This document shows, one piece after another, positions 3,034-61,405 of a stretch of 64,000 nucleotides of DNA. Source of the stretch: Candidatus Dormibacter sp. (GTDB lineage Bacteria; Chloroflexota; Dormibacteria; CF-121); the NCBI GenBank assembly GCA_039922495.1, contig JBDTEO010000017.1:84430-148429 (forward strand), written 5' to 3'. The notes beneath the pieces were generated by a model, which saw only the letters and a program-made list of their open reading frames with translations, had not been told where the DNA came from and searched no databases. Numbering within the stretch: the first letter of the stretch is position 1; the number at the start of each line of letters is the position of its first letter. A program made the translations under genes and the position numbers.

Positions 3034-3378
3034 CTAGAGGCCCTGCCGGTCGAGGCGCTCCCAGGGCTCATGCTCGCTTCCCAGCTCCCGCTTGATTTCG
3101 GTGGCTCGATCCACGTTGTCGAGGCTGTCCTCCGGGGAGCGCGGCCGGACACGCTGCCAGGGCGCTGGGTCATAGTGTGAGTGCTCGACCGGCGGCCGAA
3201 ACCCCCAGGCGCGACTCGGCATGACGCCCGAGGTTTGGCGCAGCGGCGTGGGCGCATCGCCGTCCGCGTAGACCAACTCGCCGCCCATGCCGGGCCGGAG
3301 GGTCATCAACAGCCCGGCGATCACGACCACCGCCGCCCAGCCTCCGAGGATGGCCACCGCCCAGTCGTTCAGGCTCAC
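3034..3378 (-). CDS. hypothetical membrane-anchored protein
   Basis: N-terminal hydrophobic helix (AVAILGGWAAVVVIAGLLM); stop/start overlap with the upstream TauE gene suggests co-transcription. Confidence 0.4.
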   Translation of the reverse strand: MSLNDWAVAILGGWAAVVVIAGLLMTLRPGMGGELVYADGDAPTPLRQTSGVMPSRAWGFRPPVEHSHYDPAPWQRVRPRSPEDSLDNVDRATEIKRELGSEHEPWERLDRQGL

Positions 3379-31384: not shown

Positions 31385-31458
31385 GGGCCGTTAGCTCAGG
31401 TGGTTAGAGCGGCCGGCTCATAACCGGTTGGTCGAAGGTCCGAGTCCTTCACGGCCCA
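31385..31458 (+). tRNA. tRNA-Met, anticodon CAT (elongator-type; a lysidine tRNA-Ile2 cannot be excluded)
   Basis: Cloverleaf folds manually: acceptor GGGCCGT/ACGGCCC, anticodon loop CTCATAA, T-arm GAAGG-TCCGAGT-CCTTC, discriminator A, no encoded CCA; G1-C72 pair, so not initiator-like. Confidence 0.85.
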
Positions 31459-31713: not shown

Positions 31714-32928
31714 TCAGGCCGATCGCGCGTGCGCGGTGACCGGCCGGCTGAGCGCCCACCTGCCATTGCCGGACCGGCGTGGCGTGCAGCCGTCTTCGTG
31801 CACCATCCGGTGATGCCGGCGGCAAAGGAGTACCAGGTTTGCCATGGTGGTCTCGCCGCCGTGGACCCAGTGCTTGAGGTGATGCGCGTCAGTCCAGTCC
31901 GGCGGCCGGGCACAACCCTCGGCAACGCAGCCGTGATCGCGAGCGGCGAGCGCCCGTCGCGTCGCCGGTGGGATGGTCCTCGTCGCCCGACTGACCTCGA
32001 CGTCGAGCTCGCCCTGGCCGGTGATCTTGGTCAGGGCCGCATCGCAGGCCAGCCGCCGAACCGTCTCGCCTGGGACCGAGCCGCCCCGCTCGATCTGACC
32101 GGCAGGCGCCCCCGGAGTTCCGGCGAGGGTTTCGACGCTGGCGCGAACCACCAGATGAGGTCGCGCTCCCGAGCCAGGGTTCCCCTCGTCGCTCTCCTGC
32201 CTGCCGAGGTCGACCAGCGCGTCCGCGCGCCGCTGGCCCCCTGTGCGATCGTCGTCCTTGTCCGGCGGCGGCATCAGGCGATTGAGTGCCGTGGTCAGAA
32301 TTGCTCCGCCTTCGGCGTCCAGCATGCCGTCCAGACGCACGAGACCATCGGCCGGTTCTGAGACGTGAAAGTAGCGCCGCTCATAGCCGTGGTTTGCCTC
32401 TGTCAGCGCCCGGTGGGCATCAACCTGGTGCTCGTAACTCTTCAAGAAGCCGATGAAGTGGCCCGGGTCCATTGTCCCCGCCGTCTTCACCAACGTCGCC
32501 TCGGACTTACGCACCTCGGCGGCCCCGACCTGCTCGGCGGTCCGGGCGATCCCGGCCACATGTTGGTAGCCGATGTCCCCATTGGCAAAAGCCTTCTGCG
32601 TCTCCGGGAGCTTTTCCAATTGGCGGCTGATGGTCACCCGCTCGGCCGCCGCGCTTCCCGAAAGCTTGCATTTCCAGCGCAGCCAGGCCACGATCCCTAG
32701 GGCGCCATCGGCCGCGTACTTGCCGGATTTATCAAAACGGTGCACCCCATCGGCAAAGGCCGCCTCCAGCCGATCCTCTGCCTCGCGTGCGGTGATGAGT
32801 CCCTGGCCCAGCGCCTCACCATTTGCCTGGCGCAACTCGCCGGCATAATCGCCGATGGCTTGCATCAATCGTCTTCCGGAAGACTCGAGTCGATCGCCTG
32901 TCGCGGCCATGCTTTCATCCTGAGGCAC
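31714..32928 (-). CDS. DUF222 domain / HNH endonuclease protein (13E12-repeat family type)
   Basis: C-terminal HNH motif DAHHLKHWVHGGETTMANLVLLCRRHHRMVHEDG; long N-terminal DUF222-like region; sits next to the tRNA after a lower-GC spacer. Confidence 0.8.
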   Translation of the reverse strand: MPQDESMAATGDRLESSGRRLMQAIGDYAGELRQANGEALGQGLITAREAEDRLEAAFADGVHRFDKSGKYAADGALGIVAWLRWKCKLSGSAAAERVTISRQLEKLPETQKAFANGDIGYQHVAGIARTAEQVGAAEVRKSEATLVKTAGTMDPGHFIGFLKSYEHQVDAHRALTEANHGYERRYFHVSEPADGLVRLDGMLDAEGGAILTTALNRLMPPPDKDDDRTGGQRRADALVDLGRQESDEGNPGSGARPHLVVRASVETLAGTPGAPAGQIERGGSVPGETVRRLACDAALTKITGQGELDVEVSRATRTIPPATRRALAARDHGCVAEGCARPPDWTDAHHLKHWVHGGETTMANLVLLCRRHHRMVHEDGCTPRRSGNGRWALSRPVTAHARSA

Positions 32929-42536: not shown

Positions 42537-42551
42537 GGCCGCCGAGACTCT

Positions 42552-42648
42552 ATACTCGATTCAGTTAGGGGTGCGTTTGGAACGCTGAGAGGTGGATCGC
42601 TCCGCCAACCCGTAGAACCTGATCTGGGTAATGCCAGCGGAGGGAAGC
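42552..42648 (+). promoter_or_regulatory. TPP (THI-box) riboswitch
   Basis: GGGGTGC ... CTGAGA ... ACCC ... GAACCTGATCTGGGTAATGCCAGCGGAGGGAA matches the TPP aptamer consensus nearly base for base; the ATG follows immediately. Confidence 0.85.
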
Positions 42649-44013
42649 ATGAGCGTCGCCGACCGACCGGTCGTCCCGACTGTCGAGGCGGACGCCTTCC
42701 TCAAGGTCGAGGCCCACGGCATCGAGGAGATCCCGGTCGCGGAGCGGACCGGCCGGCCGCGGGAGGTCGCCCTGCTCTGGGTGGCGGCCTTCGCCAACTT
42801 CGTGTCGCTGATCACGGGCGCCCTCCTGGTTGCCCTGGGTCTGGGCGTTGCCGAAGCCATCCTCGCGGTCTGGGTCGGGAGCATCCTGGCCGGTACGCTC
42901 CACGGGCTGCTCAGCGCCGCCGGCCCGCGGTTTGGGACGACCCAGGTCGTCGCTGCGCGTCACACCTTTGGCACGCGCGGTGCGGCCGGAGGCGCGTTCT
43001 TCACGCTCTTTCTTGCCATCGGGTGGTTTGCCGTTGACTGCGTCATCGCGACCCAGGCACTCGTCCAGGTTTGCCACCTGGCCGGGCTTCCAACGGGGCG
43101 CCTGACCAACGCCCTCGTCCTGCTCGTCGTGGTGGCCCTGTCCGTTATCGTCGCGGTCTATGGCCATAGCACCATCCAGGTTTTCGAACGCTACGGCGCA
43201 ATCCTGTTCGTCGCCTTCTGTGCGGTGCTGTTCGTGTCGCTGTTGCCACGCGTGAACTGGGGGCTGCCGCCCAGCGTGGCCGGCGCCGATCATGTCGCCG
43301 CGTGGATCCTCGGAACGAGCGTGATCTTCGCGCTGGTCGCGTCCTGGTTCAGCTTTGCGTCGGATTATTCGCGCTATCTCCCGCGCGAGGTGCGCCTGTC
43401 GTCGGTCGCCGGCTGGATTGGAGCCGGCACGTCACTCTCGATGGGACTCTTCGGCAGCGCCGGCGTTGTTTTGGCCAGTATCAAGCCGGCCAGCGCCGGC
43501 AATCTCCTGGGCCTCATCACCGACAGCGCGCCCGGGGCGATTGTCGTGCCGTTTCTTCTCTTTATCGCGATCGGGGAGATCTGGGCAAACTACCTCGACG
43601 TCTACACCGCAGGGCTCTCCGGGCTGGCTCTCAATCTGCGGCTGCGCCGCTGGACCGCCGCCCTTGCCTGCGGCCTGCTCGGCGGAGTCCTCGCCTACCT
43701 GGCGCTTTTTGTCTCGAACTTCAAGGACCAATACACGAACTTTCTCTTGATCACGTACCTCTGGGTCCCATCGTGGGCCGCGGTGGTCCTGGTCGATCTA
43801 TTCGTCTTTGGACGACGCGCCGGGACGCTCCCCGCTGTCCGCCCCGCCGCGGTGGCCGCCTGGCTCACCGGGCTGGTCGTAGCCATCCCCTTCGTCGACT
43901 CGACCTTATGGCAGAGTCCGCTTGCGATTGGCCTCCTGCACGGCACCGACATCTCGGGCTATGTCGGTGCCATGGTCGGCGGTGGCCTGTACCTGGTGAT
44001 TGGCCGGCGATGA
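42649..44013 (+). CDS. NCS1/purine-cytosine permease family transporter, probable hydroxymethylpyrimidine transporter (CytX-like)
   Basis: 12-TM permease with Transp_cyt_pur-like N-terminal pattern; directly riboswitch-controlled and coupled to thiD (ATGA overlap); the ORF-track start 42631 lies inside the aptamer, so 42649 is preferred. Confidence 0.7.
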   Translation: MSVADRPVVPTVEADAFLKVEAHGIEEIPVAERTGRPREVALLWVAAFANFVSLITGALLVALGLGVAEAILAVWVGSILAGTLHGLLSAAGPRFGTTQVVAARHTFGTRGAAGGAFFTLFLAIGWFAVDCVIATQALVQVCHLAGLPTGRLTNALVLLVVVALSVIVAVYGHSTIQVFERYGAILFVAFCAVLFVSLLPRVNWGLPPSVAGADHVAAWILGTSVIFALVASWFSFASDYSRYLPREVRLSSVAGWIGAGTSLSMGLFGSAGVVLASIKPASAGNLLGLITDSAPGAIVVPFLLFIAIGEIWANYLDVYTAGLSGLALNLRLRRWTAALACGLLGGVLAYLALFVSNFKDQYTNFLLITYLWVPSWAAVVLVDLFVFGRRAGTLPAVRPAAVAAWLTGLVVAIPFVDSTLWQSPLAIGLLHGTDISGYVGAMVGGGLYLVIGRR

Positions 44014-44819
44014 GCCAGGCTGTCGCGCTCACGATTGCCGGCTCGGATTCCGGCGCCGGCGCGGGGATCCAGGCGGACCTTAAGACGTTGGCCGCGCTCG
44101 GAATCTACGGTGTCAGCGTCGTCACCGCCGTGACGGCGCAGAACACGCTGGGAGTCCGCGCCGTGCAGGAGATCGAGCCGGCGCTGGTGACCGCCCAGCT
44201 CGACGCGGTGGCGGAGGATTTTTCCATCAGCGCGCTGAAGACGGGGATGCTCGCCAGCGCTCCGGTCATCGAACAGGTGGTTGCCGGAATCCGGCGGCAC
44301 CGGCTCCAACACCTGGTGGTCGACCCCGTGATGGTCGCGAAAAGTGGCGACCGGCTGTTGCGTGAAGACGCGGTCAATGCTCTTCGGACGCTGCTGCTGC
44401 CCCTTGCCGAGCTTGTCACCCCGAACCTTCCCGAGGCCGAGGTCCTCGCAGGACAGGCCATCCACTCAATGGCCGACCGGGTAAGCGCGGCCCGCGCCCT
44501 CCTCGCGCTAGGCGCCCAGGCGGTGGTCATCAAAGGCGGCCATGCCGACCAGGACCCGGTGGTCGATTTGCTGGTGGACCAGGACGGGGTCGAGGAGTTC
44601 CGAGCGCCGCGAATCCACACCACGAGTACGCATGGCACCGGGTGCACCTTCTCTGCGGCGATCGTCGCCGGGCTGGCCCGCGGGCTCGACCATGCCGCCG
44701 CGGTTGGCCTCGCGCGAGAATACGTGTCGGCGGCGCTGCAGCGGGCCGAGCCCCTTGGGCACGGACACGGTCCACTTGGTCATTTCGCCGCAAAGGAGGC
44801 AGCCGATGCCATTCGCTGA
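44010..44819 (+). CDS. thiD: hydroxymethylpyrimidine/phosphomethylpyrimidine kinase
   Basis: LTIAGSDSGAGAGIQADLKT N-terminal ThiD signature; ribokinase-fold C-terminal GTGCT. Confidence 0.9.
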   Translation: MSQAVALTIAGSDSGAGAGIQADLKTLAALGIYGVSVVTAVTAQNTLGVRAVQEIEPALVTAQLDAVAEDFSISALKTGMLASAPVIEQVVAGIRRHRLQHLVVDPVMVAKSGDRLLREDAVNALRTLLLPLAELVTPNLPEAEVLAGQAIHSMADRVSAARALLALGAQAVVIKGGHADQDPVVDLLVDQDGVEEFRAPRIHTTSTHGTGCTFSAAIVAGLARGLDHAAAVGLAREYVSAALQRAEPLGHGHGPLGHFAAKEAADAIR

Positions 44820-45438
44820 TCGCGACCTCGAATATCTCGAAGGCGTGCACGCACCGATGGGGCCGGTCCTCACGGAAATGCTCGAGGTGGGCCGGGCGGA
44901 GAAGATCCCGATCCTGCAGCCGTCCGCGGGACGATTCCTTCGCGTGCTTGTGATGGCGGTCGCGCCCAAACGCGTCCTCGAGATCGGTACGGCGATCGGG
45001 TTCTCCACCCTCTGGATAGCCGGCGCGCTCGCCGAGGGGGCACGGATCGATACCATCGACCCCGATCGCGCGCGAACCGATCGCGCCCGCCGCTATTGGT
45101 TGCGGGCCGGCGTCACCGACAAGATCCGCGTCATCAACGAACCGGCGCTGCGGGTGCTGCCTCGATTGGCTCCGGGAATCGAGTTTGCGTTCATCGATGC
45201 CATCAAGACGGAGTACATCGCTTACCTGGATGGGCTGCTGCCCAAGATGGCAGCCGGCGGGGTGATCACCGCCGACAACGTCCTTTGGAGCGGGCGAATC
45301 GCCGCCGGCGACCGGGACGAGGACAGCGCGGCGCTTCGGGCCTTCAACGAATACTTCCTGCATCACGACCAACTCGAGGCAACCGTTCTTCCCGTGGGCG
45401 ACGGCCTGGCCGTCGGCGTCGTCCGCCCGCACGCCTGA
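44806..45438 (+). CDS. class I SAM-dependent O-methyltransferase, family 3 (caffeoyl-CoA/catechol OMT-like)
   Basis: VLEIGTAIGFSTLW SAM motif I and FAFIDAIKTEY / DNVLWSG blocks typical of OMT family 3; AAAGGAGG RBS; overlaps the thiD 3' end by 14 nt. Confidence 0.7.
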   Translation: MPFADRDLEYLEGVHAPMGPVLTEMLEVGRAEKIPILQPSAGRFLRVLVMAVAPKRVLEIGTAIGFSTLWIAGALAEGARIDTIDPDRARTDRARRYWLRAGVTDKIRVINEPALRVLPRLAPGIEFAFIDAIKTEYIAYLDGLLPKMAAGGVITADNVLWSGRIAAGDRDEDSAALRAFNEYFLHHDQLEATVLPVGDGLAVGVVRPHA

Positions 45439-45460
45439 GATTCCCGGTACAGTACGTCGG

Positions 45461-46447
45461 TTGCCGCCTGAACCGCCTCCGCCGACCCGGGAACGGGTGC
45501 TGGATGCGTACCGCACCATCCTGCTGGCCCGCGCCCTCGACGATCGTCGCTTTCTCCTGAACCGCGTCGGCAAGCTGGCCTTCATCATCTCGCCGCGGGG
45601 ACACGAGGTCGCGCAGGTGGCGGCCATCACGGCGCTGGAACCCGGCCGCGATCGATTCTGTCTTTACTACCGGGACTTTGCCGCCGCCCTCGCGTGTGGC
45701 TTTACGCCTCGCGAGCTGATGCTCGGCGCGTTTGCGCGGGCGGGCGATCCGTCGAGTGGCGGCCGGCAGACACCTGGGAATTTCGGCAGCCGGCGTCGGG
45801 GGGTGGTGATCGGGTCCAGCACCGTCGGACCGCAGATCCCCAAGGCCGCGGGGATCGCGCTGGCGCTCAAATGGCGGGGCGATGGCGCGTTGTGTTTCGT
45901 GAGCTTTGGCGAAGGTGCCACCAGCCAGGGCGACTTTCATGAAGGCCTGAATTTCGCCGCGATTCACCGCTGTCCGGTGATCTTTTTTTGCGAGAACAAT
46001 CACTGGGCTATTTCCGTGCCGCAGCCCTTGCAGGTGGCTGGCCCCGGCGTGGCTGAGCGCGCCGCTGCCTACGGCATCCCGGGGGTGCGCGTTCGCGGCG
46101 ATGACTTTTTCGGGGTTCACGCCGCCGTCAGCCACGCGGCCCGGCGGGCCCGCGCCGGCGAGGGGCCCACCCTGATCGAGGCTGAGGTCGTTCGGCTGCA
46201 GTCCCATTCCACCGACGACGACCAGCGGGCCTATCGCGAGGCGTCTGACCTCTCGGCGGAAGCGACCAAGGATCCGATTCCGCGTCTGCGCGAGACCCTG
46301 ATCAGCCGCGGCTGGCTGACGGTCGACACTGATCGCGAAATGACCAATCGGCTCACGGTGGAAGTGGAACGAGCGACCGACGAGGCTGAAGTGGCCCCGG
46401 ACCCTGATCCGGCGACGCTGGCCCGCCACGTGTACGCCGATGCCTGA
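45461..46447 (+). CDS. 2-oxoacid dehydrogenase E1 component alpha subunit (TPP-dependent)
   Basis: TPP-binding GEGATSQGDFHEGLNFAAIHRCPVIFFCENNHWAIS. Confidence 0.85.
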   Translation: MPPEPPPPTRERVLDAYRTILLARALDDRRFLLNRVGKLAFIISPRGHEVAQVAAITALEPGRDRFCLYYRDFAAALACGFTPRELMLGAFARAGDPSSGGRQTPGNFGSRRRGVVIGSSTVGPQIPKAAGIALALKWRGDGALCFVSFGEGATSQGDFHEGLNFAAIHRCPVIFFCENNHWAISVPQPLQVAGPGVAERAAAYGIPGVRVRGDDFFGVHAAVSHAARRARAGEGPTLIEAEVVRLQSHSTDDDQRAYREASDLSAEATKDPIPRLRETLISRGWLTVDTDREMTNRLTVEVERATDEAEVAPDPDPATLARHVYADA

Positions 46448-47426
46448 GCGCACCCTGGTGCAGGCGGTTCGGGATGCCCTGGCGGAAGAGATGGAACGGG
46501 ACGAGCGTGTCTGTGTGCTGGGTGAGGACGTCGGCCTGAAGGGCGGCGTGTTCAAAGCGACCGAGGGGCTGCAACGACGGTTCGGAGCGCAACGCGTGCT
46601 CGACACGCCACTCGCCGAGTCCAGTATCGCGGCCGTGGCCCAGGGCCTGGCGCTCGAGGGCTATCGCCCGGTCGCGGAGATGCAATTTGCCGATTACAGC
46701 TTCCCGGCGTTCAACCAGATCGTCAACGAGATCGCCAAGATTCGCTATCGGTCGAACGGCGATTTCTCCTGCCCGCTGGTGATCCGGGCTCCGACCGGCG
46801 GTGGCGTTCGCGGCGCCCTGTATCACTCGCAATCCGTCGAGGCCTACTACTGTCATGTGCCGGGCCTCAAGGTTCTTCTGCCCTCAACCGCCGCCGACGC
46901 CAAAGGCCTGCTCAAGGCCGCCATCCGCGACCCTGATCCGGTCATCTTCCTCGAGCCCAAGAAGCTATACCGCGCCGAGCGGGGTGAGGTGGCCGACGGC
47001 GACGCCGCCTTGCGACCGATCGGCGAGGCCCTCGTGGTTCGACCCGGCTCGGCCCTGACGGTGATCACCTATGGCTTCATGCGCGCCGTGTCGCTGGAGG
47101 CGGCGGGGATCCTGGCGCGGGAAAATATCGACGTTGAGGTGATCGACTTACGTACGCTTCGGCCCTGGGACGTCGAGGCGTGCGTGCGTTCGGTGCGACA
47201 GACCGGGCGGGTGGCCGTGGTCTACGAGGCCAACCGCACCGGTGGGTTCGGGGCCGAGGTCGCGGCGGAGCTCGCCGAACGTTGCTTTGCCGACCTCGAT
47301 GCGCCCGTGACGCGTATCGCCAGCCCGGATGTCCCCGCGATGCCCTTCAATCCCGGGCTCGAGGACGCCTATATGCTCAATCCGGAAAAAATCGCCGACC
47401 GGCTCGGGGCCCTGGCGCGCTACTAG
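46440..47426 (+). CDS. 2-oxoacid dehydrogenase E1 component beta subunit
   Basis: Transketolase-like pyrimidine-binding and C-terminal domains (LGEDVGLKGGVFKATEGLQ); overlaps E1 alpha by 8 nt. Confidence 0.85.
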   Translation: MPERTLVQAVRDALAEEMERDERVCVLGEDVGLKGGVFKATEGLQRRFGAQRVLDTPLAESSIAAVAQGLALEGYRPVAEMQFADYSFPAFNQIVNEIAKIRYRSNGDFSCPLVIRAPTGGGVRGALYHSQSVEAYYCHVPGLKVLLPSTAADAKGLLKAAIRDPDPVIFLEPKKLYRAERGEVADGDAALRPIGEALVVRPGSALTVITYGFMRAVSLEAAGILARENIDVEVIDLRTLRPWDVEACVRSVRQTGRVAVVYEANRTGGFGAEVAAELAERCFADLDAPVTRIASPDVPAMPFNPGLEDAYMLNPEKIADRLGALARY

Positions 47427-47518
47427 CACCCGGCATGAGGGCGTCCCATCTCCACAAGAGATGGGAGTGGGGTCCTGGTTCCGGGGGGCTTGGAACAAGG
47501 AACCCCACGGCAAGTATA

Positions 47519-47538
47519 GGGGCTGGCCGCCCCCTTTT
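47519..47538 (+). terminator. candidate intrinsic terminator after the E1 beta gene
   Basis: GGGGC-TGGCC-GCCCC hairpin followed by CTTTTCC; a further hairpin CCCATCTC-CACAA-GAGATGGG lies at 47445-47465. Confidence 0.35.
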
Positions 47539-47561
47539 CCATCCACGACATCGAGGTTCCG

Positions 47562-50132: not shown

Positions 50133-51206
50133 ATGCCGCTGCGGATCGCCGTCGTCCCGGGTGATGGCATTGGGCCCGAGGTCATCGAGCCGGGCGTTCG
50201 CGTTCTCCAGGCGGCCACGTCAGGCCAATCGACGTCGTTGCAATTTACGTTCTATGACATCGGAGCCGACCGATATCTTCGGACCGGCGAGATCCTGCCG
50301 GAGAGCGTGTTCACTGAGCTGGCAGCGGCGGATGCGATCTACCTCGGCGCCATCGGCGACCCTCGGGTCAAGAATCCGCAGTACGCGGCCGGCATTTTGT
50401 TACGTCTGCGATTTGAGCTCGACCTCTGGGCCAACCTGCGTCCCTCAACGCTGCTTGCCCCGGCGCTGACACCGTTGCGAGACGCCCCGCACATCGATCT
50501 GATCGTGGTGCGCGAAAACACCGAGGGCGCCTACGTCGGCATCGGTGGACAGTTCAAGCGCGGGACGATGGAGGAGGTCGCGATCCAGGAAGACATCAAC
50601 ACACGAATCGGGGTCGAGCGGGTGCTGCGCTTCGCGTTTGCCCTGGCGCATGAACGCCGGGCGGCAGGGCACTCGGGACGACTCACGATGGTCGACAAGA
50701 GCAATGCGATGTATCACGCCCATGACCTCTGGCAGCGAGTCTTCGCGCTCGAGCGTGAGCGCGCACCCGACATCGAGGCGCAGCACCTCTACGTCGACGT
50801 CGCGGCGATGCAGCTGGTCCGGCGACCGGCCGACTTTGATGTCCTCGTAACGTCCAACATGTTTGGCGACATCCTCAGCGATCTGGCATCGGAGCTTGTC
50901 GGCGGCCTCGGCCAGGCGCCCTCGGCGAACATCAACCCCGACACGCGCCGCGGGCTCTTCGAGCCGGTGCACGGATCCGCTCCGAAGCATGCAGGGAAAG
51001 GCACCGCCAACCCGGTCGGGGCGATTCTCTCGGGCGCCATGATGCTGCGTCACCTTGGGGCAACCGAGAGCGCCGACCGGATCGAGCGCGCCGTCGCGGC
51101 GGCCGTGCGCGAGGGAGCGGCGACGAAGGATCTTGGCGGCTCGCTGACGACGCAGGCTGCGGCTGAGGCCATCCTCGACAGGCTCGAGCCATTGCGCTCC
51201 GGGTGA
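50133..51206 (+). CDS. isocitrate/isopropylmalate dehydrogenase family protein (3-isopropylmalate, homoisocitrate or tartrate dehydrogenase-like)
   Basis: RIAVVPGDGIGPEV N-terminus and NMFGDILSD signature. Confidence 0.8.
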   Translation: MPLRIAVVPGDGIGPEVIEPGVRVLQAATSGQSTSLQFTFYDIGADRYLRTGEILPESVFTELAAADAIYLGAIGDPRVKNPQYAAGILLRLRFELDLWANLRPSTLLAPALTPLRDAPHIDLIVVRENTEGAYVGIGGQFKRGTMEEVAIQEDINTRIGVERVLRFAFALAHERRAAGHSGRLTMVDKSNAMYHAHDLWQRVFALERERAPDIEAQHLYVDVAAMQLVRRPADFDVLVTSNMFGDILSDLASELVGGLGQAPSANINPDTRRGLFEPVHGSAPKHAGKGTANPVGAILSGAMMLRHLGATESADRIERAVAAAVREGAATKDLGGSLTTQAAAEAILDRLEPLRSG

Positions 51207-51255: not shown

Positions 51256-53271
51256 GTGAAGCCGAACGCTCCGCCCTCACCGCGACCCGCCGCCAAACGC
51301 CCTGGTAGTGCCGGGAGCACCGACCACACGATTCGGGGAAGCGCGCTGATCTTCTGGGATCGGAAGATCCCAGGCAAGAAGCTCGATGCCATCGATACCG
51401 ACCAGATCACGCCGGCCGACGATTGCGTGTCGGAGAGCCTGGACCGGCTCGACGAGCGGTGGAAGGCCGGGTCATTTCGGTATCTCATGCCCGACTTCCG
51501 GCAGCGCGTCCATCGGGGTGAGAACTTCGTCATCGCCGGAGAGCGCTTCGGCATCGGCTCATCGCGGGAGATGAGTCCGGCCGGTCTCAAGGCGGTTGCC
51601 GAAGAGGTGGGCTCGGAGCTCGTGATTGTCTGTGGCGATGGAGTGGGGGACATCTTTCGTCGAAACGCCCTCAACCTCGGGCTCACGGTCGTCCAGAGCC
51701 GCGACGCGGTCGAAGACTCGCAGGAAGGCGATCAGTTCTCCCTCGACCTGTCCACTCGGCGGCTGACCAACGAGACACGACACAAGACCTACGAGCCGGT
51801 ACCGCTGACTCCAAAGGAGGAGGACATTCGTCGCTCGGGCGGCATCATCGCGATCGGCCGTCGGGAGTTTAGCGAGTCGGTCGAGCGCAAGCCCGCCGTG
51901 GAGTGGGCCAGCGCGACAACGGCGCGGACGCTGAGTACCTCAGAGCAGATTGTCTGGGCGCACCGGGTCGACAAGGATGCCGAGGTGCGGCCGGGCGCAA
52001 CGCTCCGCGTCTGGTGCGACCTGTTGCCGGCGTCGGACGGGACCGCGCCCTTCTCGATCCACACCTTCAACCAGATCAGCGGTGGGAACACGATCTTTCC
52101 GCGCCAGGCTGCAATCGCGAACGATCACTTCGTCTTCTCCGGCCGCAATGCCGATGACAAGCAGACGTCGATCGGGCGCGACTTCGCCCGGCTGCAGGGG
52201 ATCGGCAAGCCGTACTACGCGACCCCCGGCGATGGCATTTTTCATTTTTATTTTCCCGAGCAGGGCCTGGTCATCCCGGGCGCGTTCATCCCGGGAGCCG
52301 ACTCGCACAGCCGCGCCTACGGCGCCTACGGGGCGATCGGCGTTGGCGTGGGCAGCACGCAGCTCGGGTTCGGCTGGTCGACCGGTTACATCTATTTCAC
52401 GCCGGCCAGACGCCGCCGCGTGGTCTTTACCGGCCGGCTGAGGCCCTGGGTCAGCGGCAAGGACGTGGTCCTGGCCCTGCTGCGACGGTGGGGCAAGGGG
52501 CAAGCACAGGGCATGAGCGTGGAGTTCGTGGACGCCGAGCGGCAGCTGCCAATTCCATACCGGAACACGATCGCCAACATGATGGCGGAGGCCGAGGCCC
52601 AGAACGGCATCTTCGCGTCGGACGAAATTACGCTCGACTGGTACCGGCGTAAAGGCATCACGAACCTGCCCTATCCGACCATCAAGCCTGGAGACGATAT
52701 CGCCTGGGACATCGACGAAACGCTGGATCTTTCTGAACTCGTGCCATACGTGGCCAAGCCGTTCGCACCCGGGAACGCCTTTCCTGCTGACGAGATCGCC
52801 CAGGAAAAGCTGCGCTTCGACAAGGCCTTCATCGGCTCCTGCACCAACGGGGGCTACGACGATCTGCTCGAAGCCGCGCTCGTCCTCCGCGCCGGTCGTG
52901 AAAAGGGTTTCGAAAAGGCGCCGCAGCAGTTCGTCGTCTTTCCTGGTTCGGGCAGCGTCAAACGGGATATCGAAAACCCGGAGCCCCGGCTCGGCGGTGA
53001 ATCGATCGCCGCGACGCTCCGGTCCGCCGGGGCCGAGATCCGCGATTCGTGGTGCGGGCCCTGCTTCGGCCAGGGCCCCGATGCACTGAAGAAGGGCGAG
53101 GTCGCGATCACCTCGTTCAATCGCAACTGGCAGAACCGGATGGGCGTCGGTGGCCTTGGCTACCTCGCGAGCCCGGCGGTCGTCGCCTCATCGGCGCTGC
53201 TGGGCTACATGGCCGGGCCATCGTCCCTCGGGATCGAGTGGGATCCCGAGCGCTTCGACGTCTCTGTCTAG
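51256..53271 (+). CDS. aconitase-family dehydratase with permuted fusion: LeuD-like swivel domain N-terminal, LeuC-like catalytic domains C-terminal
   Basis: N-terminal ENFVIAGERFGIGSSREMSPAGL and DIFRRNALNLGL (LeuD-like); C-terminal PGADSHSRAYGAYGAIGVGVGST and FIGSCTNGG (LeuC Fe-S ligand regions). Confidence 0.75.
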   Translation: MKPNAPPSPRPAAKRPGSAGSTDHTIRGSALIFWDRKIPGKKLDAIDTDQITPADDCVSESLDRLDERWKAGSFRYLMPDFRQRVHRGENFVIAGERFGIGSSREMSPAGLKAVAEEVGSELVIVCGDGVGDIFRRNALNLGLTVVQSRDAVEDSQEGDQFSLDLSTRRLTNETRHKTYEPVPLTPKEEDIRRSGGIIAIGRREFSESVERKPAVEWASATTARTLSTSEQIVWAHRVDKDAEVRPGATLRVWCDLLPASDGTAPFSIHTFNQISGGNTIFPRQAAIANDHFVFSGRNADDKQTSIGRDFARLQGIGKPYYATPGDGIFHFYFPEQGLVIPGAFIPGADSHSRAYGAYGAIGVGVGSTQLGFGWSTGYIYFTPARRRRVVFTGRLRPWVSGKDVVLALLRRWGKGQAQGMSVEFVDAERQLPIPYRNTIANMMAEAEAQNGIFASDEITLDWYRRKGITNLPYPTIKPGDDIAWDIDETLDLSELVPYVAKPFAPGNAFPADEIAQEKLRFDKAFIGSCTNGGYDDLLEAALVLRAGREKGFEKAPQQFVVFPGSGSVKRDIENPEPRLGGESIAATLRSAGAEIRDSWCGPCFGQGPDALKKGEVAITSFNRNWQNRMGVGGLGYLASPAVVASSALLGYMAGPSSLGIEWDPERFDVSV

Positions 53272-53530: not shown

Positions 53531-54772
53531 TCAGGTGAGCGCCCTCGTTGATCGCGTCTTGACAATCGCATGCACCTCCGCCTCATGCAGTAGATGATTG
53601 CCCTGCTTGGCGTGCTCGACAATCGCGCGGACCAGGTCTGGATTGGGCGCGATGCCGCGCTGCTCGAGCCAGTAGATGACGTTCGATTCGCCGCTCATCG
53701 GGCCGATCTCGATCACCTGCTGGCAACCGAACAGGTCCGCCGGGACACCTGAGTAAACCCGGTTGGCGAGCCAGTCGTCACCCTTGCGCATGGCCTTGAT
53801 CACGGCGGCCGCATGGACGCCGGTGGCTGTCCGAAACGCATCGGCACCGAGGACGGGATAGTTCGCCGGGATGGCCATCCCGGTTCCCTCGGCGATGATC
53901 TCACCCATCTCCTTCAGCTTGCTCAGGTCGGTGTCGATCCAACCGAGCAGCCTGAAGTTGACGAGCAGCAGGTCGAGGTGCGTGTTGCCGACGCGCTCGC
54001 CGAGACCAAGGGCGCAGCCATGGATTCGGTCGGCGCCAGCGTTGGCCGCCTCGATGGCGTTGATCAAGCCCAGGCCGCGGTCGCTGTGCCCGTGCCAGTC
54101 CAGGCCTACGTTTGGATTCATCTCATCGAGCATCGTTCGGACGTGTTTGATGATGGCGCGGACGCCGTCAGGCGTGGAGTGGCCGACGGTGTCGCAGACG
54201 GCGACGCGCTGCGCGCCCTCCTCGATGGCCGTACCAAAGAGCCGTTTCAGCGTGTCGGGATGGGCGCGGGTGGTGTCCTCCGTCACGAACATCACCGGCA
54301 ACTGGTGTTCGCGCGCGAACCGGACGGCCTTGCGCGTGTTCTCGACCATCTGGTCGATCGTCCAGCCCTCGGCGTACTGGCGGATGGGGCTCGATCCGAT
54401 GAAGGCCGCGACCTCGATCGGGATTCCGACTCGCTGCGAGATCTCGACGACAGGGCGAATATCCACCTCCAGCGTTCGGGCGGCGCAAAGCGGCTTGATG
54501 CCGAGCCGCTCGTCGCGGATCTCTTCGGCGAGCCGCCCGACGTGCGCGACGGCGCGCGGGCCGGAGCCGGGGAGCCCCAAATCGATGGAGCCGACGCCGA
54601 GCTGGTCGGCGAGATGGAGAAAGCGCAGCTTGACGTCGATCTCCGGGTCGCGGACCGACGGGCCCTGAATGCCGTCGCGCAAGGTCTCGTCGTGGACCGA
54701 TACTCGGTGGGCCGGCGGTGGCGGCGCGTCGACGGTGTTCCAGTCGTAGATCAGGTCGTGCTGCTCAGGCAT
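53531..54772 (-). CDS. 2-isopropylmalate/citramalate/homocitrate synthase family enzyme (short form, no regulatory domain)
   Basis: HDETLRDGIQ, WHGHSDRGLGLINAIEAANAGADRIHGCALGLGERVGN, PANYPVLGADAFRTATGVH; start overlaps the E2 gene end by 8 nt. Confidence 0.75.
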   Translation of the reverse strand: MPEQHDLIYDWNTVDAPPPPAHRVSVHDETLRDGIQGPSVRDPEIDVKLRFLHLADQLGVGSIDLGLPGSGPRAVAHVGRLAEEIRDERLGIKPLCAARTLEVDIRPVVEISQRVGIPIEVAAFIGSSPIRQYAEGWTIDQMVENTRKAVRFAREHQLPVMFVTEDTTRAHPDTLKRLFGTAIEEGAQRVAVCDTVGHSTPDGVRAIIKHVRTMLDEMNPNVGLDWHGHSDRGLGLINAIEAANAGADRIHGCALGLGERVGNTHLDLLLVNFRLLGWIDTDLSKLKEMGEIIAEGTGMAIPANYPVLGADAFRTATGVHAAAVIKAMRKGDDWLANRVYSGVPADLFGCQQVIEIGPMSGESNVIYWLEQRGIAPNPDLVRAIVEHAKQGNHLLHEAEVHAIVKTRSTRALT

Positions 54773-55955
54773 CCGCCCGCTCCAGGCGCTGCACCAGGTC
54801 GGTCAAGAATTCCGTGGCCATCGCGCCGTCGACGATCCGGTGGTCGACGGAGATCGAGATCCATGCCCCGGGGCACGCCACGACCTGCCCATCAACCACC
54901 ATCGGCCGCGGCTTGATGGCGCCGAACCCGACCACGCAACACTCCGGCGGGTTGATGATGGGCGTGCCGGTCTCGATCGGCCCGCTGGCGCCGACGTTGG
55001 TAATCGTGATCGTCCCACCGGTCATCTCCGCCGGCGTCAGCGTCCCGGCCCGAGCCCCTTCGATCAGCCGGCCGCTGTGCTCGGAGATGGCGCGAAGATC
55101 GAGATCGTCGGCGTTCCGGATGACCGGGACCAGCAAACCCTTGTCGGTGTTGACGGCGATCCCGACGTTGACGGCCTCCTTGACGATGATCTCGTCTTTG
55201 GCGTCATCCCACGAGCTATTGAGCATCGGGTATTTGCGGACCGACGCGGCGACGGCGGCAATGAAGTAGGGCAGGGGAGTCATCGAGGCGCCTCCCGCCT
55301 TTGCGGCGGCCCGCTTCTCTCCGAGGGTCGTCGCATCGAAGATGGCGAACTCGGTGAACTGCGGGATGGTCGAGACGGAGCGCACCATCTGCCGCGCGAT
55401 CGCTTTGCGCAGGCCAACGACGCTGACCCGTCGCTCGCCCTCAACCGGCGCGGCGGCTGCCGGCTGCGCGGCGGTGGGGCCGCTGTCGGCGGCGGCCTCG
55501 ACGTCGCCACGCGTGATCCGGCCGCCAGGACCGGTCCCGGTAATCGTCGCGAGATCGACCCCTTTCTCTTTGGCGAGCTGGCGGACGAAAGGCGCCGCCC
55601 GCACGTCTGATGCTGATTCCGGCTGGGGGCTTGGACGTGCACGCCGGCGAACCCCGGTCTCCGGGCCGGCGCCCGGTCCATACCCGACCAGGGTGCTGGG
55701 TGCCGCCTCTTCAACTTCGGAAGCGATCGTGACCAGGGGCGCCCCGACCTCGACCGACTCACCCGGCTTCGCGTGCAGCTTCCGGATCGTCCCACGCCAG
55801 GGCGAAGGGATGACCACGACCGCCTTTGCCGTCTCGACCTCGCAGAGCGGCGCGTTGACGTCAACCTCGGCGCCTTCCTCCACCCGCCAGCTCATCAGCT
55901 GCGCCTCGGTCAGCCCTTCACCGAGGTCGGGAAGGTTGAAGGTCTGGTCAGCCAT
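54765..55955 (-). CDS. 2-oxoacid dehydrogenase E2 component (dihydrolipoamide acyltransferase)
   Basis: Lipoyl domain (LPDLGEGLTEAQLMSWRVEEG ... VETAKA), Ala/Pro linker, catalytic DHRIVDGA; internal ATG at 55955 chosen (upstream ORF extension is junk). Confidence 0.85.
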   Translation of the reverse strand: MADQTFNLPDLGEGLTEAQLMSWRVEEGAEVDVNAPLCEVETAKAVVVIPSPWRGTIRKLHAKPGESVEVGAPLVTIASEVEEAAPSTLVGYGPGAGPETGVRRRARPSPQPESASDVRAAPFVRQLAKEKGVDLATITGTGPGGRITRGDVEAAADSGPTAAQPAAAAPVEGERRVSVVGLRKAIARQMVRSVSTIPQFTEFAIFDATTLGEKRAAAKAGGASMTPLPYFIAAVAASVRKYPMLNSSWDDAKDEIIVKEAVNVGIAVNTDKGLLVPVIRNADDLDLRAISEHSGRLIEGARAGTLTPAEMTGGTITITNVGASGPIETGTPIINPPECCVVGFGAIKPRPMVVDGQVVACPGAWISISVDHRIVDGAMATEFLTDLVQRLERADA

Positions 55956-56913
55956 AGGCGATGACGGTGTCGATGGCCTCGAGAATCCGGTCGACGTCCG
56001 GCAGATAGAGCTTCTCGAAGCGCGATGGGGGATAGGGCACATTGAGGCCGGCGACCCGCTGGACGGGTGCCTCGAGGAGGTCGAAGGCGTCGTGGCTGAT
56101 GCGGGCCGCAATCTCGGCGCCGAAGCCACAGAAGACCGGCGCCTCGTGGACGATGACGGCGCGATGCGTCTTAGTAACCGAGGTCATCACGGCATCCATG
56201 TCGAGCGGGGAGAGGCTGCGCAGGTCGATGACTTCGACGGAGGTGCCGTCTTCGGCGGCAGCCTTGGCCGCCTGCAGTGCCGTCTGCACCGTCGGCCCGT
56301 AGCCGATCACCGTCACCGCCGTCCCCGCCTGCCGCACACAGGCCTTGCCGATCGGGATGCGGGCGGCCGGGTCGACCTCTGCCTTGAGGTAATAGCGGGC
56401 CTTCGGTTCGAAGAAGACGACCGGATCGTCGTCGGCGATCGCGGCGCGGAGCAGCCCATAGGCATCGCCAGGGGTCGAGGGCGCTACCACCTTGAGGCCG
56501 GCCGTGTGGGCGAAGTACGCCTCGGGGCTCTCGGAGTGATGCTCGACCGCGCCGATGTTGCCACCAAATGGGACTCGGATGGTGATCGGCAGCGAGATGC
56601 CCGAGCGGTTTCGATACTTGGCGACGTGGCTGACGATCTGCTCGAAGGCGGGATAGATGAAGCCATCGAACTGGATCTCCGGAATCGGGCGGAATCCCCG
56701 CAGGGCGAGACCGATGGCGACCCCGATGATGGCCGACTCCGCCAGCGGCGTATCGAAGACGCGCTCCTCGCCGAACTCTTTCTGCAGGCCGTCAGTGATC
56801 CGGAAAACGCCCCCCAGCGCGCCGACGTCCTCGCCAAAAATCAGGGTGTCCGGGTCGGCGCTCAGTGAGTCGCGCAGGGCCTGGTTGAGCGCCTTGGCCA
56901 TGGTGGCTTCCAT
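55948..56913 (-). CDS. 2-oxoacid dehydrogenase E1 beta subunit
   Basis: Transketolase-like beta-subunit blocks (FGEDVGALGGVFRITDGL, FEPKARY). Confidence 0.85.
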   Translation of the reverse strand: MEATMAKALNQALRDSLSADPDTLIFGEDVGALGGVFRITDGLQKEFGEERVFDTPLAESAIIGVAIGLALRGFRPIPEIQFDGFIYPAFEQIVSHVAKYRNRSGISLPITIRVPFGGNIGAVEHHSESPEAYFAHTAGLKVVAPSTPGDAYGLLRAAIADDDPVVFFEPKARYYLKAEVDPAARIPIGKACVRQAGTAVTVIGYGPTVQTALQAAKAAAEDGTSVEVIDLRSLSPLDMDAVMTSVTKTHRAVIVHEAPVFCGFGAEIAARISHDAFDLLEAPVQRVAGLNVPYPPSRFEKLYLPDVDRILEAIDTVIAYG

Positions 56914-57998
56914 CAGGGTTGCTCTAGCGAGGCTTCGAACTCCTCGCGTTCCTTGACGAACGGCTCGGGTGGTGACTGGTAAACGCCGCCGTAGACGGCC
57001 TCGCCGGCTGGAGGCATCGGCGCGTTGAGGAGCTTCTCGCGCATCTCTCTGGCAATACCTTCCGCCTCCTCGATCACGGCCCGATCCGCCGCCTCGTCGA
57101 GCACCCCGGCTGCCGTCAGGGTCGTCTTGAAGCGGGCGATCGGGTCCTTTGCCGACCAGGCGTCGACATCAGCGGCGAGACGGTAGCGTGTCGGGTCGTC
57201 GGAGCTGGTGTGGGCGCCCATGCGGTACGTGACGGCCTCGATCAGATACGGCCCTTCGCCGCTTCGCGCGCGGTCGGCCGCGACCTTGACGGCGCCGTAA
57301 ACCGCGAGGATGTCGTTGCCATCGATCCGGATGCCTGGAAAGCCGTAGCCCGGGGCACGTTCGGCGATCGACCCCGCCGTCTGCTTGTTGAGGGGCACCG
57401 AGATCGCCCAGTAGTTGTTCTGGCAGAGGAAGACCACCGGCGAGCGAAAAACGCCGGCAAAATTCATCGCCTCGTGCCAGTCGCCTTCGGAAGTCGCCCC
57501 ATCGCCGAAGGTCACGAGGACGGCTTCGTCAGTCTTCTTCAGCCGGCAGCCCATGGCAAAGCCGACGGCGTGTGGAATCTGCGTTGCCACGGGAATCGCG
57601 AGCGGGGCAAAGTGATACCGTTGCGGATCCCAGGCGCCGTGGGTCAGGCCTTTGAAGAGGGTGAGCATCGCGGCCGGGTCGACGCCGCGGCACATCGCCA
57701 TGCCGAATTCCCGGTAGCTCGGAAAGATCCAGTCCGTCTCGCGCAGGGCTATCGTCGCGCCGACGTGGACCGCCTCCTGCCCGAGGAATTGGCCCCACAA
57801 GCCGAGCTGCCCCTGGCGCTGCAGGTTCAGGGCCTCCTGGTCGGCTCGACGGATGACGACCATCCATCGATAGAGGTCGCGGAGCGCCTCTGGGTCCAAT
57901 CCCAGGGATTGCCGAGCCTCGTTCGACAGCGTTCCGTCGGGTGCGAACAGGCGACGAACGGGGTCCGCGGCGCGTATCACCTCGACGACGTCTGCCAC
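56913..57998 (-). CDS. 2-oxoacid dehydrogenase E1 alpha subunit (TPP-dependent)
   Basis: FGDGATSEGDWHEAMNFAGVFRSPVVFLCQNNYWAIS TPP motif; GTG start at 57998 chosen because the first 99 codons of the ORF-track ORF are non-homologous read-through. Confidence 0.8.
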   Translation of the reverse strand: MADVVEVIRAADPVRRLFAPDGTLSNEARQSLGLDPEALRDLYRWMVVIRRADQEALNLQRQGQLGLWGQFLGQEAVHVGATIALRETDWIFPSYREFGMAMCRGVDPAAMLTLFKGLTHGAWDPQRYHFAPLAIPVATQIPHAVGFAMGCRLKKTDEAVLVTFGDGATSEGDWHEAMNFAGVFRSPVVFLCQNNYWAISVPLNKQTAGSIAERAPGYGFPGIRIDGNDILAVYGAVKVAADRARSGEGPYLIEAVTYRMGAHTSSDDPTRYRLAADVDAWSAKDPIARFKTTLTAAGVLDEAADRAVIEEAEGIAREMREKLLNAPMPPAGEAVYGGVYQSPPEPFVKEREEFEASLEQP

Positions 57999-58034
57999 CG
58001 GTGACAATCGTATACCCGGGTATCGTAGAGCTAG

Positions 58035-58709
58035 ATGGCAGACGACCCGGTCGCCGCGCTCGCTGAGCTCTATCAGGTCGAGCAGCGCCTGGCGGAAATC
58101 CGTCAGGACACGGCTCGCCTCCACCAAACGCTGGACGGCGATCCGGCGATCGGGGATGGCCGGGCGCGCCTGGTGGTGGCCGAGACGAGGCGAGCGGATC
58201 TCCAGCGGCGGCTTCGCGATGCCGAAGCGCAGGAGCGCACCGAGCGGGCCCGGGCGCGGACGCACGAGCAACAGCTCTACTCCGGAACCATCCACAATCC
58301 GCGCGAGCTCTCGCAGCTGGCCGGTGAACTTGAACAGCTCAAGGGCCGCCTCGCGCTGGAAGAAGTCACCGAGATGGAGCTGTTGGCGGAACTCGACGAG
58401 GCGGACGCCGAACTCCGCGCCGCCACTGACGAAGCCAGGGAGGCGCGGCTGGCCCTACCCGATCTGGAGAATGCCGAGCGACGGGCCCTGGCGGAGATTG
58501 CGGAGCAGCGAGGCCACATTCCGGCCAGCCGGTTACATCTATACGACCGGGTCGAGGCTCATCGGCCGCCACCGCCGATCGTCGAGGTGCGAGGCGGGAC
58601 CTGCACGGGATGCCGGCTGCCGCTCTCCACGAGCCAGGTCCGGGCGCTGCGCATGGCTACGGAGCCGATTACCTGCGAGACCTGCGGGCGGATCCAGCGG
58701 TTGGCATGA
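58035..58709 (+). CDS. C4-type zinc-ribbon domain protein (COG1579-like), coiled-coil
   Basis: Long Arg/Glu/Ala/Leu coiled coil, then CTGCRLPLS ... CETCGRI zinc ribbon; ATGA-coupled to rnhA. Confidence 0.6.
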   Translation: MADDPVAALAELYQVEQRLAEIRQDTARLHQTLDGDPAIGDGRARLVVAETRRADLQRRLRDAEAQERTERARARTHEQQLYSGTIHNPRELSQLAGELEQLKGRLALEEVTEMELLAELDEADAELRAATDEAREARLALPDLENAERRALAEIAEQRGHIPASRLHLYDRVEAHRPPPPIVEVRGGTCTGCRLPLSTSQVRALRMATEPITCETCGRIQRLA

Positions 58710-60766: not shown

Positions 60767-61068
60767 CGCCCGGTCGGGGTGACCCGAAGGAGAGTGCCAC
60801 AGAAAATACACAGCCGCGGCGCGAGCCTCGGCGAAGGTGAAATGGTGAGGTAAGAGCCCACCAGCAGCCGGGAGACCGGCTGGCTCGGTAAACCCCACCT
60901 GGAGCAAGACCAAATAGGAGGACACCAGGGCTGGCTCGGCCCGTCCTCGGGTACGGTCGCTAGAATCGCCGGGCAACCGGCGATCGAGACGGATGGCTGC
61001 CGCCCCGCATCGTGTCGCTTCGGCGGCTGACGCGGGGTACAGAACTCGGCTTATCGGCGGACTCAACT
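60686..61068 (+). ncRNA. rnpB: RNase P RNA (bacterial type A)
   Basis: GAGGAAAGTCCG (P4), GGGTAACGCC, ACAGAAA, GGTGAAA, GGTAAGAGCCCACCAG, GGTAAACCCCACCTGGAGCAAG, ACAGAACTCGGCTTATCGG; P1 pairing GGCGAGTCCGCC / GGCGGACTC. Confidence 0.85.
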
Positions 61069-61405
61069 ATCACGCACGACGTTGCGCACCAACGGCTCAT
61101 GGGCGGCTCGGGCAAAATCAATCGGCCCTCGCCGTGCCCGACGACCCTGGTGCGCACCGCGTGCTCTCCGCGCGAAGGCGCGGTTCGGCCTACGGCCTCA
61201 CCCCTGCTAAGGCATGGCGCTGCTCTGCAACGCGTGTCGGTCTGCAGCAGAGCCGCAGCCCGACAGAAGTACGAAACCTGCTTAGGTCGGGCCAGGGCGC
61301 AGACCCGCACGGAGTCCCGGCCCGACCGATGCGAATACGAGGACACAACATCTAGGGGGTTGTTCTTTGGGTTTCCACCAGTACACAAGATTTGCCCGTA
61401 GATCG

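Follow-up and report, generated by a model that had tools for sequence, protein, structure and literature searches.

The riboswitch locus and its genes

The window examined here is a 64,000-nucleotide stretch of DNA from Candidatus Dormibacter sp. (assembly GCA_039922495.1, contig JBDTEO010000017.1, positions 84,430 to 148,429 of the forward strand). Within this window, we focused on a string of five plus-strand genes headed by a thiamine pyrophosphate (TPP) riboswitch. The genes encode an NCS1-family permease, the kinase ThiD, an O-methyltransferase (OMT), and the alpha and beta subunits of a TPP-dependent 2-oxoacid dehydrogenase (E1 alpha and E1 beta). A preliminary description, made from the DNA letters alone, had viewed the locus as a TPP-controlled operon in which the OMT and the E1 pair travel as cargo foreign to any described thiamine route. 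The tight packing of five genes on one strand, which that description emphasized, is real: the permease gene and thiD overlap by 4 nt, thiD and the OMT gene by 14 nt, and the E1 alpha and E1 beta genes by 8 nt, the latter two values being those already reported. Two details needed correction. The gap between the OMT gene and E1 alpha is 22 nt, not 23 nt, and four genes (thiD, OMT, E1 alpha, and E1 beta) rather than five follow the permease.

Conservation of the gene string

Relatives of the locus were gathered from one genome per species using two OMT peptide patterns, a scan that covers OMT orthologues carrying those motifs. The string was found in at least 17 species-level Dormibacterota genomes (L007-L021 and L048, less one incomplete locus), all 17 having the gene order MoOx-permease-thiD-OMT-E1 alpha-E1 beta-(glyoxalase)-M55-trpD-leuB. 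Protein identity to the window was 69-88% for the OMT, 70-79% for ThiD, 77-85% for E1 alpha, and 80-88% for E1 beta, so that the two E1 subunits are the most conserved proteins of the string (77-88%). The junctions were also kept across the genomes, with -4 nt at permease/thiD in every genome locus examined, -14 or -17 nt at thiD/OMT in every genome and in all 49 contigs that could be evaluated, -11 to +29 nt at OMT/E1 alpha, and -8 nt at E1 alpha/E1 beta. A metagenome scan yielded 116 contigs, 59 of which carried thiD, OMT, E1 alpha, and E1 beta together. The worry that the linkage might be unique to the window genome can be set aside, because the same junction geometry recurs in at least 17 genomes and about 59 metagenomic contigs.

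The conserved region is larger than the string itself. A neighbourhood of about 15 kb, CAP-MoOx-...-trpD-leuB, was syntenic in every genome with the linkage, and because this whole neighbourhood is syntenic, conservation is uninformative on function. We therefore rejected conservation as evidence of a functional link. In addition, the M55 and trpD genes overlap by 4 nt in every locus and have no known shared pathway, and overlap is therefore no sign of shared function in this Dormibacterota clade.

The TPP aptamer and its predicted switch

The Rfam model RF00059 matched positions 42557..42662 (+) with 68.3 bits against a gathering score of 54.3 (E 2.6e-11). The match runs over model positions 1-105, the full length, and bears out the TPP aptamer (THI element) of the preliminary description. 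It is the only TPP aptamer in the whole 64-kb window. Orthologous aptamers scored 59.8-72.7 bits in all eight of the eight syntenic Dormibacterota loci scanned with Rfam, and by blastn an aptamer stands ahead of the permease in all syntenic loci. Just upstream lies a -10-like hexamer, TATACT (42551..42556, +), which ends 1 nt before the start of the Rfam match at 42557 and is the candidate promoter of the riboswitch-led transcript. A TANNNT hexamer occupied this column, at window position 42551, in 15 of 17 Dormibacterota loci in the operon alignment, and across 19 aligned leaders TATACT was conserved a few bases (5-8 nt in the alignment) 5' of the aptamer. Transcription would begin within a few bases upstream of the aptamer.

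Folding the leader as a single sequence gave no useful signal (z = -0.06), and for this reason we read the leader anatomy from a covariance-model alignment. The 3' segment of the aptamer, GCGGAGGGA, was invariant in 19 of 19 aligned leaders, and in all 19 an ATG, GTG, or TTG came 3-6 nt past it. The Shine-Dalgarno sequence of the permease, GGAGGGA (42639-42645), is part of the aptamer's own 3' strand, and the permease ATG (42649-42651) abuts the P1 stem; the two together form the expression platform (42639..42651, +). There was no leader terminator in any of the 19 aligned leaders. Since the aptamer's 3' segment is itself the Shine-Dalgarno sequence, binding of TPP would hide the ribosome-binding site and turn permease translation off. 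From this anatomy we infer an OFF switch that acts on translation of the permease. A second in-frame ATG (42631-42633) lies inside the aptamer, in the conserved UAAUGCC segment, and mechanical calling of open reading frames (ORFs) places the permease start there, 18 nt early. The true start is likely ATG 42649, behind GGAGGGA, and not ATG 42631.

The permease and ThiD as a probable salvage unit

The permease (42649..44013, +) belongs to the NCS1 family (PF02133, 110.8 bits versus 23.5) and is presumed to transport 4-amino-5-hydroxymethyl-2-methylpyrimidine (HMP) or a related pyrimidine. It had been called a CytX-like NCS1 permease; the family holds, but the CytX label does not, as the protein scored 72.9 bits against the NCBIfam CytX model TIGR02358, whose cut-off is 309.85. 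The next gene, thiD (44010..44819, +), has a start codon that overlaps the permease stop (ATGA). Its product, an HMP and HMP phosphate kinase, matched TIGR00097 over its full length with 338.5 bits against an equivalog cut-off of 204.95. With the aptamer in the 5' leader of a transport gene and thiD next downstream, the locus has the usual placement of a riboswitch. These results support the earlier view of the permease and ThiD as an HMP salvage pair, and the two look like a TPP-controlled pyrimidine salvage unit. No thiamine genes other than those of the string were present among the annotated ORFs of the window.

The ThiD start is preceded by only a G-rich stretch in the window and in its closest relatives, and by AAGGTGA in genomes that carry a paralogous permease. 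With a weak ribosome-binding site and the ATGA overlap, translation of thiD would follow that of the permease through translational coupling.

The paralogous permease provides a further view of this unit. In L009, L012, L016, L017, and L018 (for example, L012 7835-9202), the permease position is taken by an NCS1 paralogue that is 45-48% identical to the window protein and likewise scores below the CytX cut-off, leaving the NCS1 family as its assignment. Around the swapped permease, the aptamer and thiD are in place, and these and all flanks are 70-85% identical. The pattern suggests that two permease lineages have replaced each other at a single locus. That the permease can be swapped while the aptamer and thiD stay fits the aptamer, permease, and thiD as a functional unit.

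Known cytX-thiD salvage operons share with this locus a TPP aptamer directly before an NCS1 permease, followed by thiD. The locus differs from them in three respects. The permease is below the CytX cut-off (72.9 versus 309.85), the Shine-Dalgarno sequence sits inside the 3' segment of the aptamer with no separate expression platform, and the OMT and E1 alpha/beta genes trail in the same compact string.

The O-methyltransferase

The third gene (44806..45438, +) encodes a cation-dependent family-3 O-methyltransferase (PF01596, 123.8 bits versus 22), and no NCBIfam equivalog matched it. The closest solved structures are generic bacterial OMTs of the catechol/caffeoyl-coenzyme A (CCoA) type, roughly equidistant at 71-95 bits. 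In the comparison with the tRNA ho5U methyltransferase TrmR/YrrM, 5ZW3 (YrrM) scored 71 bits and 8K1F 45 bits, lower than several uncharacterised OMTs. The window OMT shares the PF01596 fold family and residues D131, K134, D157, and N158 with catechol/CCoAOMT-like bacterial OMTs and with TrmR/YrrM, but is not close to any characterised family-3 OMT (45-95 bits). The same four residues were invariant in 21 OMT orthologues and kept in a four-sequence alignment with OMTs of a sister lineage. Presumably, D131, D157, and N158 together with K134 form the metal-binding and catalytic lysine/base set of COMT and CCoAOMT.

The OMT gene has its own ribosome-binding site, AAGGAGG, which lies within the 3' end of thiD. 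In the 17-genome alignment, no promoter- or terminator-like element was conserved between thiD and the OMT gene, an element that the preliminary description had named, in combination with thiamine-independent expression of the OMT and E1, as able to undo its proposal. The OMT would be the sole non-thiamine gene firmly tied to the riboswitch transcript. Co-transcribed with thiD, lacking its own promoter and translated from its own GGAGG-type site, it would sense TPP indirectly, via polarity or mRNA decay.

The closest sequences to the window OMT are from Candidatus Dormibacterota, where the OMT has the thiamine cassette on one flank and the E1 pair on the other. The next-closest orthologues, 45-50% identical, lie in a different gene context. 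They were found on contigs L023, L090, L091, and L092 (the last labelled Limnocylindrales), four independent contigs that share the block [278-aa unknown]-OMT-MoaD/MoaE-M55-lysine-aminomutase-like. Both thiD and E1 genes were absent within the flanks of these sister-lineage blocks, and Rfam found no TPP aptamer in those scanned. The adjacency of OMT and M55 is therefore older than the tie between the OMT and thiamine genes. Firmicute OMT homologues were only 28-40% identical among the matches listed. None of these had thiD nearby, and the only E1-like genes were two weak E1 beta matches (23-29% identity, in L064 and L078), located several kb from the OMT.

An observation unrelated to the string concerns the same sister-lineage contigs. 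A few kb upstream of the OMT block are c-di-GMP-I-GGC aptamers (RF03167, 66-71 bits), all on the minus strand, at 98-187 in L023, 224-304 in L090, and 3090-3173 in L091.

The E1 pair and its possible E2 partner

E1 alpha (45461..46447, +) begins with TTG and matched PF00676 with 264.5 bits, and E1 beta (46440..47426, +) carries PF02779 and PF02780 and matched NF006667 with 325 bits against a cut-off of 321. The pyruvate dehydrogenase (PDH) equivalog TIGR03181 gave E1 alpha 284 against a cut-off of 411. The best solved relatives of E1 alpha are the 2-oxoacid dehydrogenase E1 of T. thermophilus (1UM9, 230 bits) and the human branched-chain 2-oxoacid dehydrogenase (BCKDH), relative to which E1 alpha is without about 35-45 N-terminal residues. 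E1 beta matched 1UM9_B with 334 bits and was at least 60% alike over the full length. E1 alpha retains the GEG...NN TPP motif and the HS loop, and E1 beta retains YHSQS. The pair has all the parts of a heterotetramer-type E1, namely an E1_dh domain in alpha, transketolase Pyr and C domains in beta, and the TPP and histidine motifs. The histidines of the HS loop and of YHSQS we take to be the residues for reductive acylation of lipoyl-E2.

An exhaustive search of 50%-identity cluster representatives found that the nearest E1 alpha relatives outside the clade are at most 50% identical. The three that we placed in context, one of them from Sphaerobacter thermophilus, are all in (E3)-E1 alpha-E1 beta-E2 operons, and neither an OMT gene nor thiD was present in those three operons. 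The neighbourhood comparison proposed in the preliminary description has a divided outcome: the linkage recurs inside the clade and is gone outside it, in the relatives of the OMT and of E1 alpha alike.

Neither E2 nor E3 adjoins the E1 pair in any Dormibacterota genome or contig examined, and no E3 was present among the annotated ORFs of the 64-kb window. The pair had been described as having no E2 or E3 nearby on this strand. This holds for the plus strand, but an E2 gene is encoded on the minus strand 7.3 kb away, in a complete PDH-type operon of E1 alpha', E1 beta', and E2 (54765..58295, -). The E1 alpha' ORF (56913-58295, -) passes TIGR03181 (421 versus 411) and is closest to the Geobacillus PDH E1, 1W85. 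E1 beta' follows at 55948-56913 (-), and the E2 ORF (54765-56129, -; true start probably near 55950) encodes lipoyl, E3-binding, and catalytic domains. By tblastn, the E1 of the string and that of the PDH operon are 40% (alpha) and 46% (beta) identical and thus distant paralogues. The PDH-operon E2 is a possible partner in trans for the E1 pair.

With the BCKDH E1 enzymes (1UM9 and human), the pair shares its closest structures and the TPP and catalytic motifs. It differs from BCKDH operons in that E2 and E3 do not adjoin it and in that it lies between the OMT gene and a peptidase gene, behind a thiamine cassette. We conclude that it looks like an ordinary BCKDH-type E1 parted from its E2, and not like an E2-independent enzyme.

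Three other genes were seen beside the PDH-type operon. A leuA/homocitrate-synthase-like gene occupies 53531-54772 (-), and the same neighbourhood contains a fused LeuD-LeuC-type dehydratase with its small-subunit domain N-terminal (51256-53271) and leuB (50133-51206).

A candidate promoter before E1 alpha

We counted TANNNT hexamers per column in a 5.6-kb operon alignment of the 17 genomes and considered a column conserved if at least 9 genomes had the hexamer. Three conserved columns resulted: before the aptamer (15/17), before E1 alpha (13/17), and after E1 beta (13/17). A strict TATACT-like filter returned no internal promoter downstream of the aptamer as far as the E1 beta stop; the site ahead of E1 alpha surfaced only with the relaxed TANNNT count. 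In the window, this site is TACAGT (45448..45453, +), a candidate internal -10 of the leaderless type, located 7 nt upstream of the E1 alpha start. Of the 17 genomes, 13 carry TAnAGT (TACAGT, TAAAGT, or TAGAGT) at this position of the alignment, and the motif recurs in 56 of 64 metagenomic contigs. A Shine-Dalgarno sequence is missing upstream of E1 alpha.

The same layout, in which TANNNT precedes the start codon by 6-9 nt and a Shine-Dalgarno sequence is missing, was found for at least 11 of 51 window genes, compared with about 1.7 expected by a rough estimate. These include the genes with starts at 3378, 4202, 5893, 19935, 37670, 47951, 50133, and 59468, and among the genes with this layout are the glyoxalase gene and leuB. 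The M55 gene has TAGAAT just before its start. Leaderless mRNAs appear to be common in the Dormibacterota genome studied, and -10 hexamers stand out from its GC-rich background. Given a -10-like hexamer 7 nt before E1 alpha, the lack of a Shine-Dalgarno sequence, and the frequency of this layout, E1 alpha and E1 beta are probably transcribed from a promoter of their own.

The 3' boundary of the string

A candidate small hairpin RNA gene (47464..47541, -) follows E1 beta. In the window, it has a putative promoter of TGGAAA, a 17-nt spacer, and TATACT (47541..47513), followed by a hairpin of about 42 nt (approximately 47505..47464) with the sequence GTGGGGTTCnTGTTCC-AAGCCCCCC-GGAACCAGGACCCCAC, in which AAGCCCCCC is the loop. 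The fold has a predicted energy of -40 kcal/mol (z = -5.4). The hairpin is single-copy and highly conserved, and was always directly 3' of E1 beta, in 19 fetched loci (for example, L001 10660-10740) and in 116 metagenomic contigs (L094 onward), and it marks the 3' boundary of the gene string. Its orientation matches that of the operon in most genomes and is reversed in the window, L007, L008, L011, and a few contigs.

Searching the stretch 3' of E1 beta against Rfam with E values up to 10 gave no match of the hairpin to any family, 6C included. With actinobacterial 6C RNA and small RNAs derived from 3' untranslated regions (3' UTRs), the hairpin shares an own -35/-10 promoter and an invariant CCCCCC loop, and as with the 3'-UTR RNAs, in most genomes it falls within the 3' part of the E1 beta transcript. 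It differs from 6C RNA in being a single hairpin of about 42 nt without an Rfam match and in being inverted in some genomes. The element looks like a candidate small RNA gene with a C-rich loop, of the 6C-like or 3'-UTR type, and E1 beta transcription probably also terminates at it in most genomes.

A candidate intrinsic terminator had been placed after E1 beta. The consensus scan did find a terminator-like hairpin there, GGGGCTGGCCGCCCC followed by CTTTTCC (47519..47540, +; hairpin at 47519-47533 plus the T run). However, it is not conserved in related loci and coincides with the spacer of the conserved minus-strand promoter, and the region contained 4 terminator-like sites, two of them inside coding sequence, versus 3.2 expected by chance.

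A composite string or a TPP regulon

Taken together, we think it probable that the locus is a composite, lineage-specific gene string and not a new thiamine pathway. We also favour, with about the same moderate confidence, a particular composition: a normal TPP-controlled permease-thiD cassette, a passively co-transcribed OMT, and an E1 pair with its own promoter. In such a history, the thiamine cassette (promoter, TPP aptamer, NCS1 permease, and thiD) would have come to lie directly upstream of an older block that already held the OMT and M55 genes, and the E1 alpha/beta pair, descended from an ordinary E3-E1-E1-E2 operon, would have been set between the OMT and M55. Genome rearrangement seems to have brought the OMT and the E1 pair next to the thiamine genes. 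The E1 genes would be expressed additionally or mainly from their own -10 as a leaderless mRNA, and their products would work as a normal lipoyl-E2-dependent E1 whose E2 is encoded elsewhere, for example in the PDH operon. The preliminary interpretation is retained in part by this proposal, namely for the aptamer, the salvage pair, the packing, and the recurrence; a thiamine-linked role of the E1 and OMT genes is weakened or left without support.

Several observations weigh against the composite string. The TAnAGT motif is missing from four of the 17 genomes, and L017 has an 11-nt overlap of the OMT and E1 alpha genes with no internal -10, so that in at least some genomes E1 alpha and E1 beta must use read-through from upstream. 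TTG is an unusual start for a leaderless mRNA, judging from actinobacterial leaderless genes, and TAnAGT may be no promoter. Further, the thiD/OMT overlap and the five-gene order are strictly kept down to about 70% protein identity, which is also expected if selection held the genes together.

The strongest alternative, which we nevertheless consider unlikely, is a true TPP regulon serving cofactor economy, in which low TPP opens the switch and raises uptake, ThiD, and a second BCKDH-type E1. The version of this model that assigns a benefit is equally doubtful: the extra E1 would keep flux going at low cofactor or would have first call on TPP, and the OMT would serve the same response in some further way. 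A regulon would explain why the compact string has a single conserved promoter and a single aptamer at its head and no conserved terminator until E1 beta has ended. It would also suit the gene order kept in all sampled clade members, the arrangement in L017, and the rank of the E1 subunits as the most conserved proteins of the string. On the other hand, the switch is predicted to act on translation of the first gene only and the leader has no terminator, most genomes have a candidate E1 alpha promoter, and neither the OMT nor E1 alpha shows the linkage in its closest relatives. The conservation loses its weight with the synteny of the whole neighbourhood. In addition, full-text literature searches brought up no case in which a TPP riboswitch governs an E1, another TPP-dependent enzyme, or an O-methyltransferase, and nothing relevant on thiamine metabolism in Dormibacterota.

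A broader form of this idea, in our estimate quite unlikely, counts the OMT as a real member of a Dormibacterota response to TPP starvation, along with the second BCKDH-type E1, which would be reached by read-through. It is also quite unlikely that, within such a response, the OMT modifies or repairs a salvaged precursor while the spare E1 competes well for scarce TPP. If this were true, the locus would hold the first TPP riboswitch governing a TPP-consuming enzyme and a new methyltransferase step in vitamin B1 salvage, and it would bear on cofactor rationing by oligotrophic soil bacteria.

If the composite string is the correct explanation, the locus is a caution that overlapping start and stop codons behind a riboswitch define no regulon in compact, high-GC genomes rich in leaderless genes, and that conserved -10 hexamers can reveal hidden internal promoters. 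The locus also provides an example of a very compact TPP switch with its ribosome-binding site within the aptamer, and offers an initial look at how thiamine precursors are salvaged in Dormibacterota, an uncultured phylum of soil bacteria.

Alternative chemistries for the E1 pair and the OMT

We hypothesized that the E1 pair could also act alone, as a TPP-dependent decarboxylase or carboligase whose aldehyde or acyloin product is then processed by the OMT or other enzymes. E1-like pairs without E2 are known from secondary-metabolite pathways, and such a function would agree with the absence of an adjoining E2 or E3 throughout the Dormibacterota sequences examined. We judge it very unlikely, as the HS and YHSQS histidine motifs are kept, E1 beta is at least 60% alike, from end to end, to its counterpart in the T. 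thermophilus BCKDH E1, all relatives looked up sit in complete complexes, and a gene 7.3 kb away encodes an E2 that has a subunit-binding domain. For the same reasons, the E2-carrying PDH operon in the window and the intact E1 motifs, the term "E2-less" is weakened as a sign of unusual chemistry.

The least probable explanation, to which we give very little credence, is modified-pyrimidine chemistry in salvage or repair of a damaged precursor or in antivitamin synthesis or detoxification, in which the permease imports an HMP- or cytosine-like pyrimidine, the OMT methylates it, and ThiD phosphorylates it: the OMT gene overlaps thiD and is alone among the non-thiamine genes in being firmly co-transcribed, but the enzyme keeps the Asp/Lys/Asp/Asn set of metal-dependent catechol-type OMTs, which methylate one of two neighbouring oxygens, a pair that HMP does not have, its sister-lineage orthologues adjoin no thiamine gene, and E1 alpha and E1 beta are left unexplained. 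A specific form of this chemistry, of the bacimethrin type, had been suggested. The bacimethrin operons of C. botulinum and Paenibacillus have a TPP riboswitch and, among five genes, a methyltransferase and a ThiD-type kinase (PMC5627462), and a layout with both behind a TPP riboswitch is present in the string as well. By itself, this layout does not define the family. The genes that do are those for a thymidylate-synthase-like CMP hydroxymethylase, a nucleoside 2-deoxyribosyltransferase, and thiaminase I (PMC5627462), and none of the three was found in the string or in any annotated ORF of the window. The two systems share the riboswitch, an S-adenosylmethionine-dependent methyltransferase, and a ThiD-family kinase, whereas the methyltransferase here is a metal-dependent family-3 OMT and the other three genes are absent from the window (compare PMC5627462). 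With only the methyltransferase and kinase present, we rejected the bacimethrin-type reading.

Other features of the window

Two RNA genes were seen at a distance from the string. A tRNA gene (31385-31458, +) adjoins a DUF222/HNH endonuclease gene (31714-32928, -), the kind of pairing that marks a small mobile or selfish element located at a tRNA. At 60691-61069 (+), a bacterial class A RNase P RNA matched its Rfam model with 278.6 bits.

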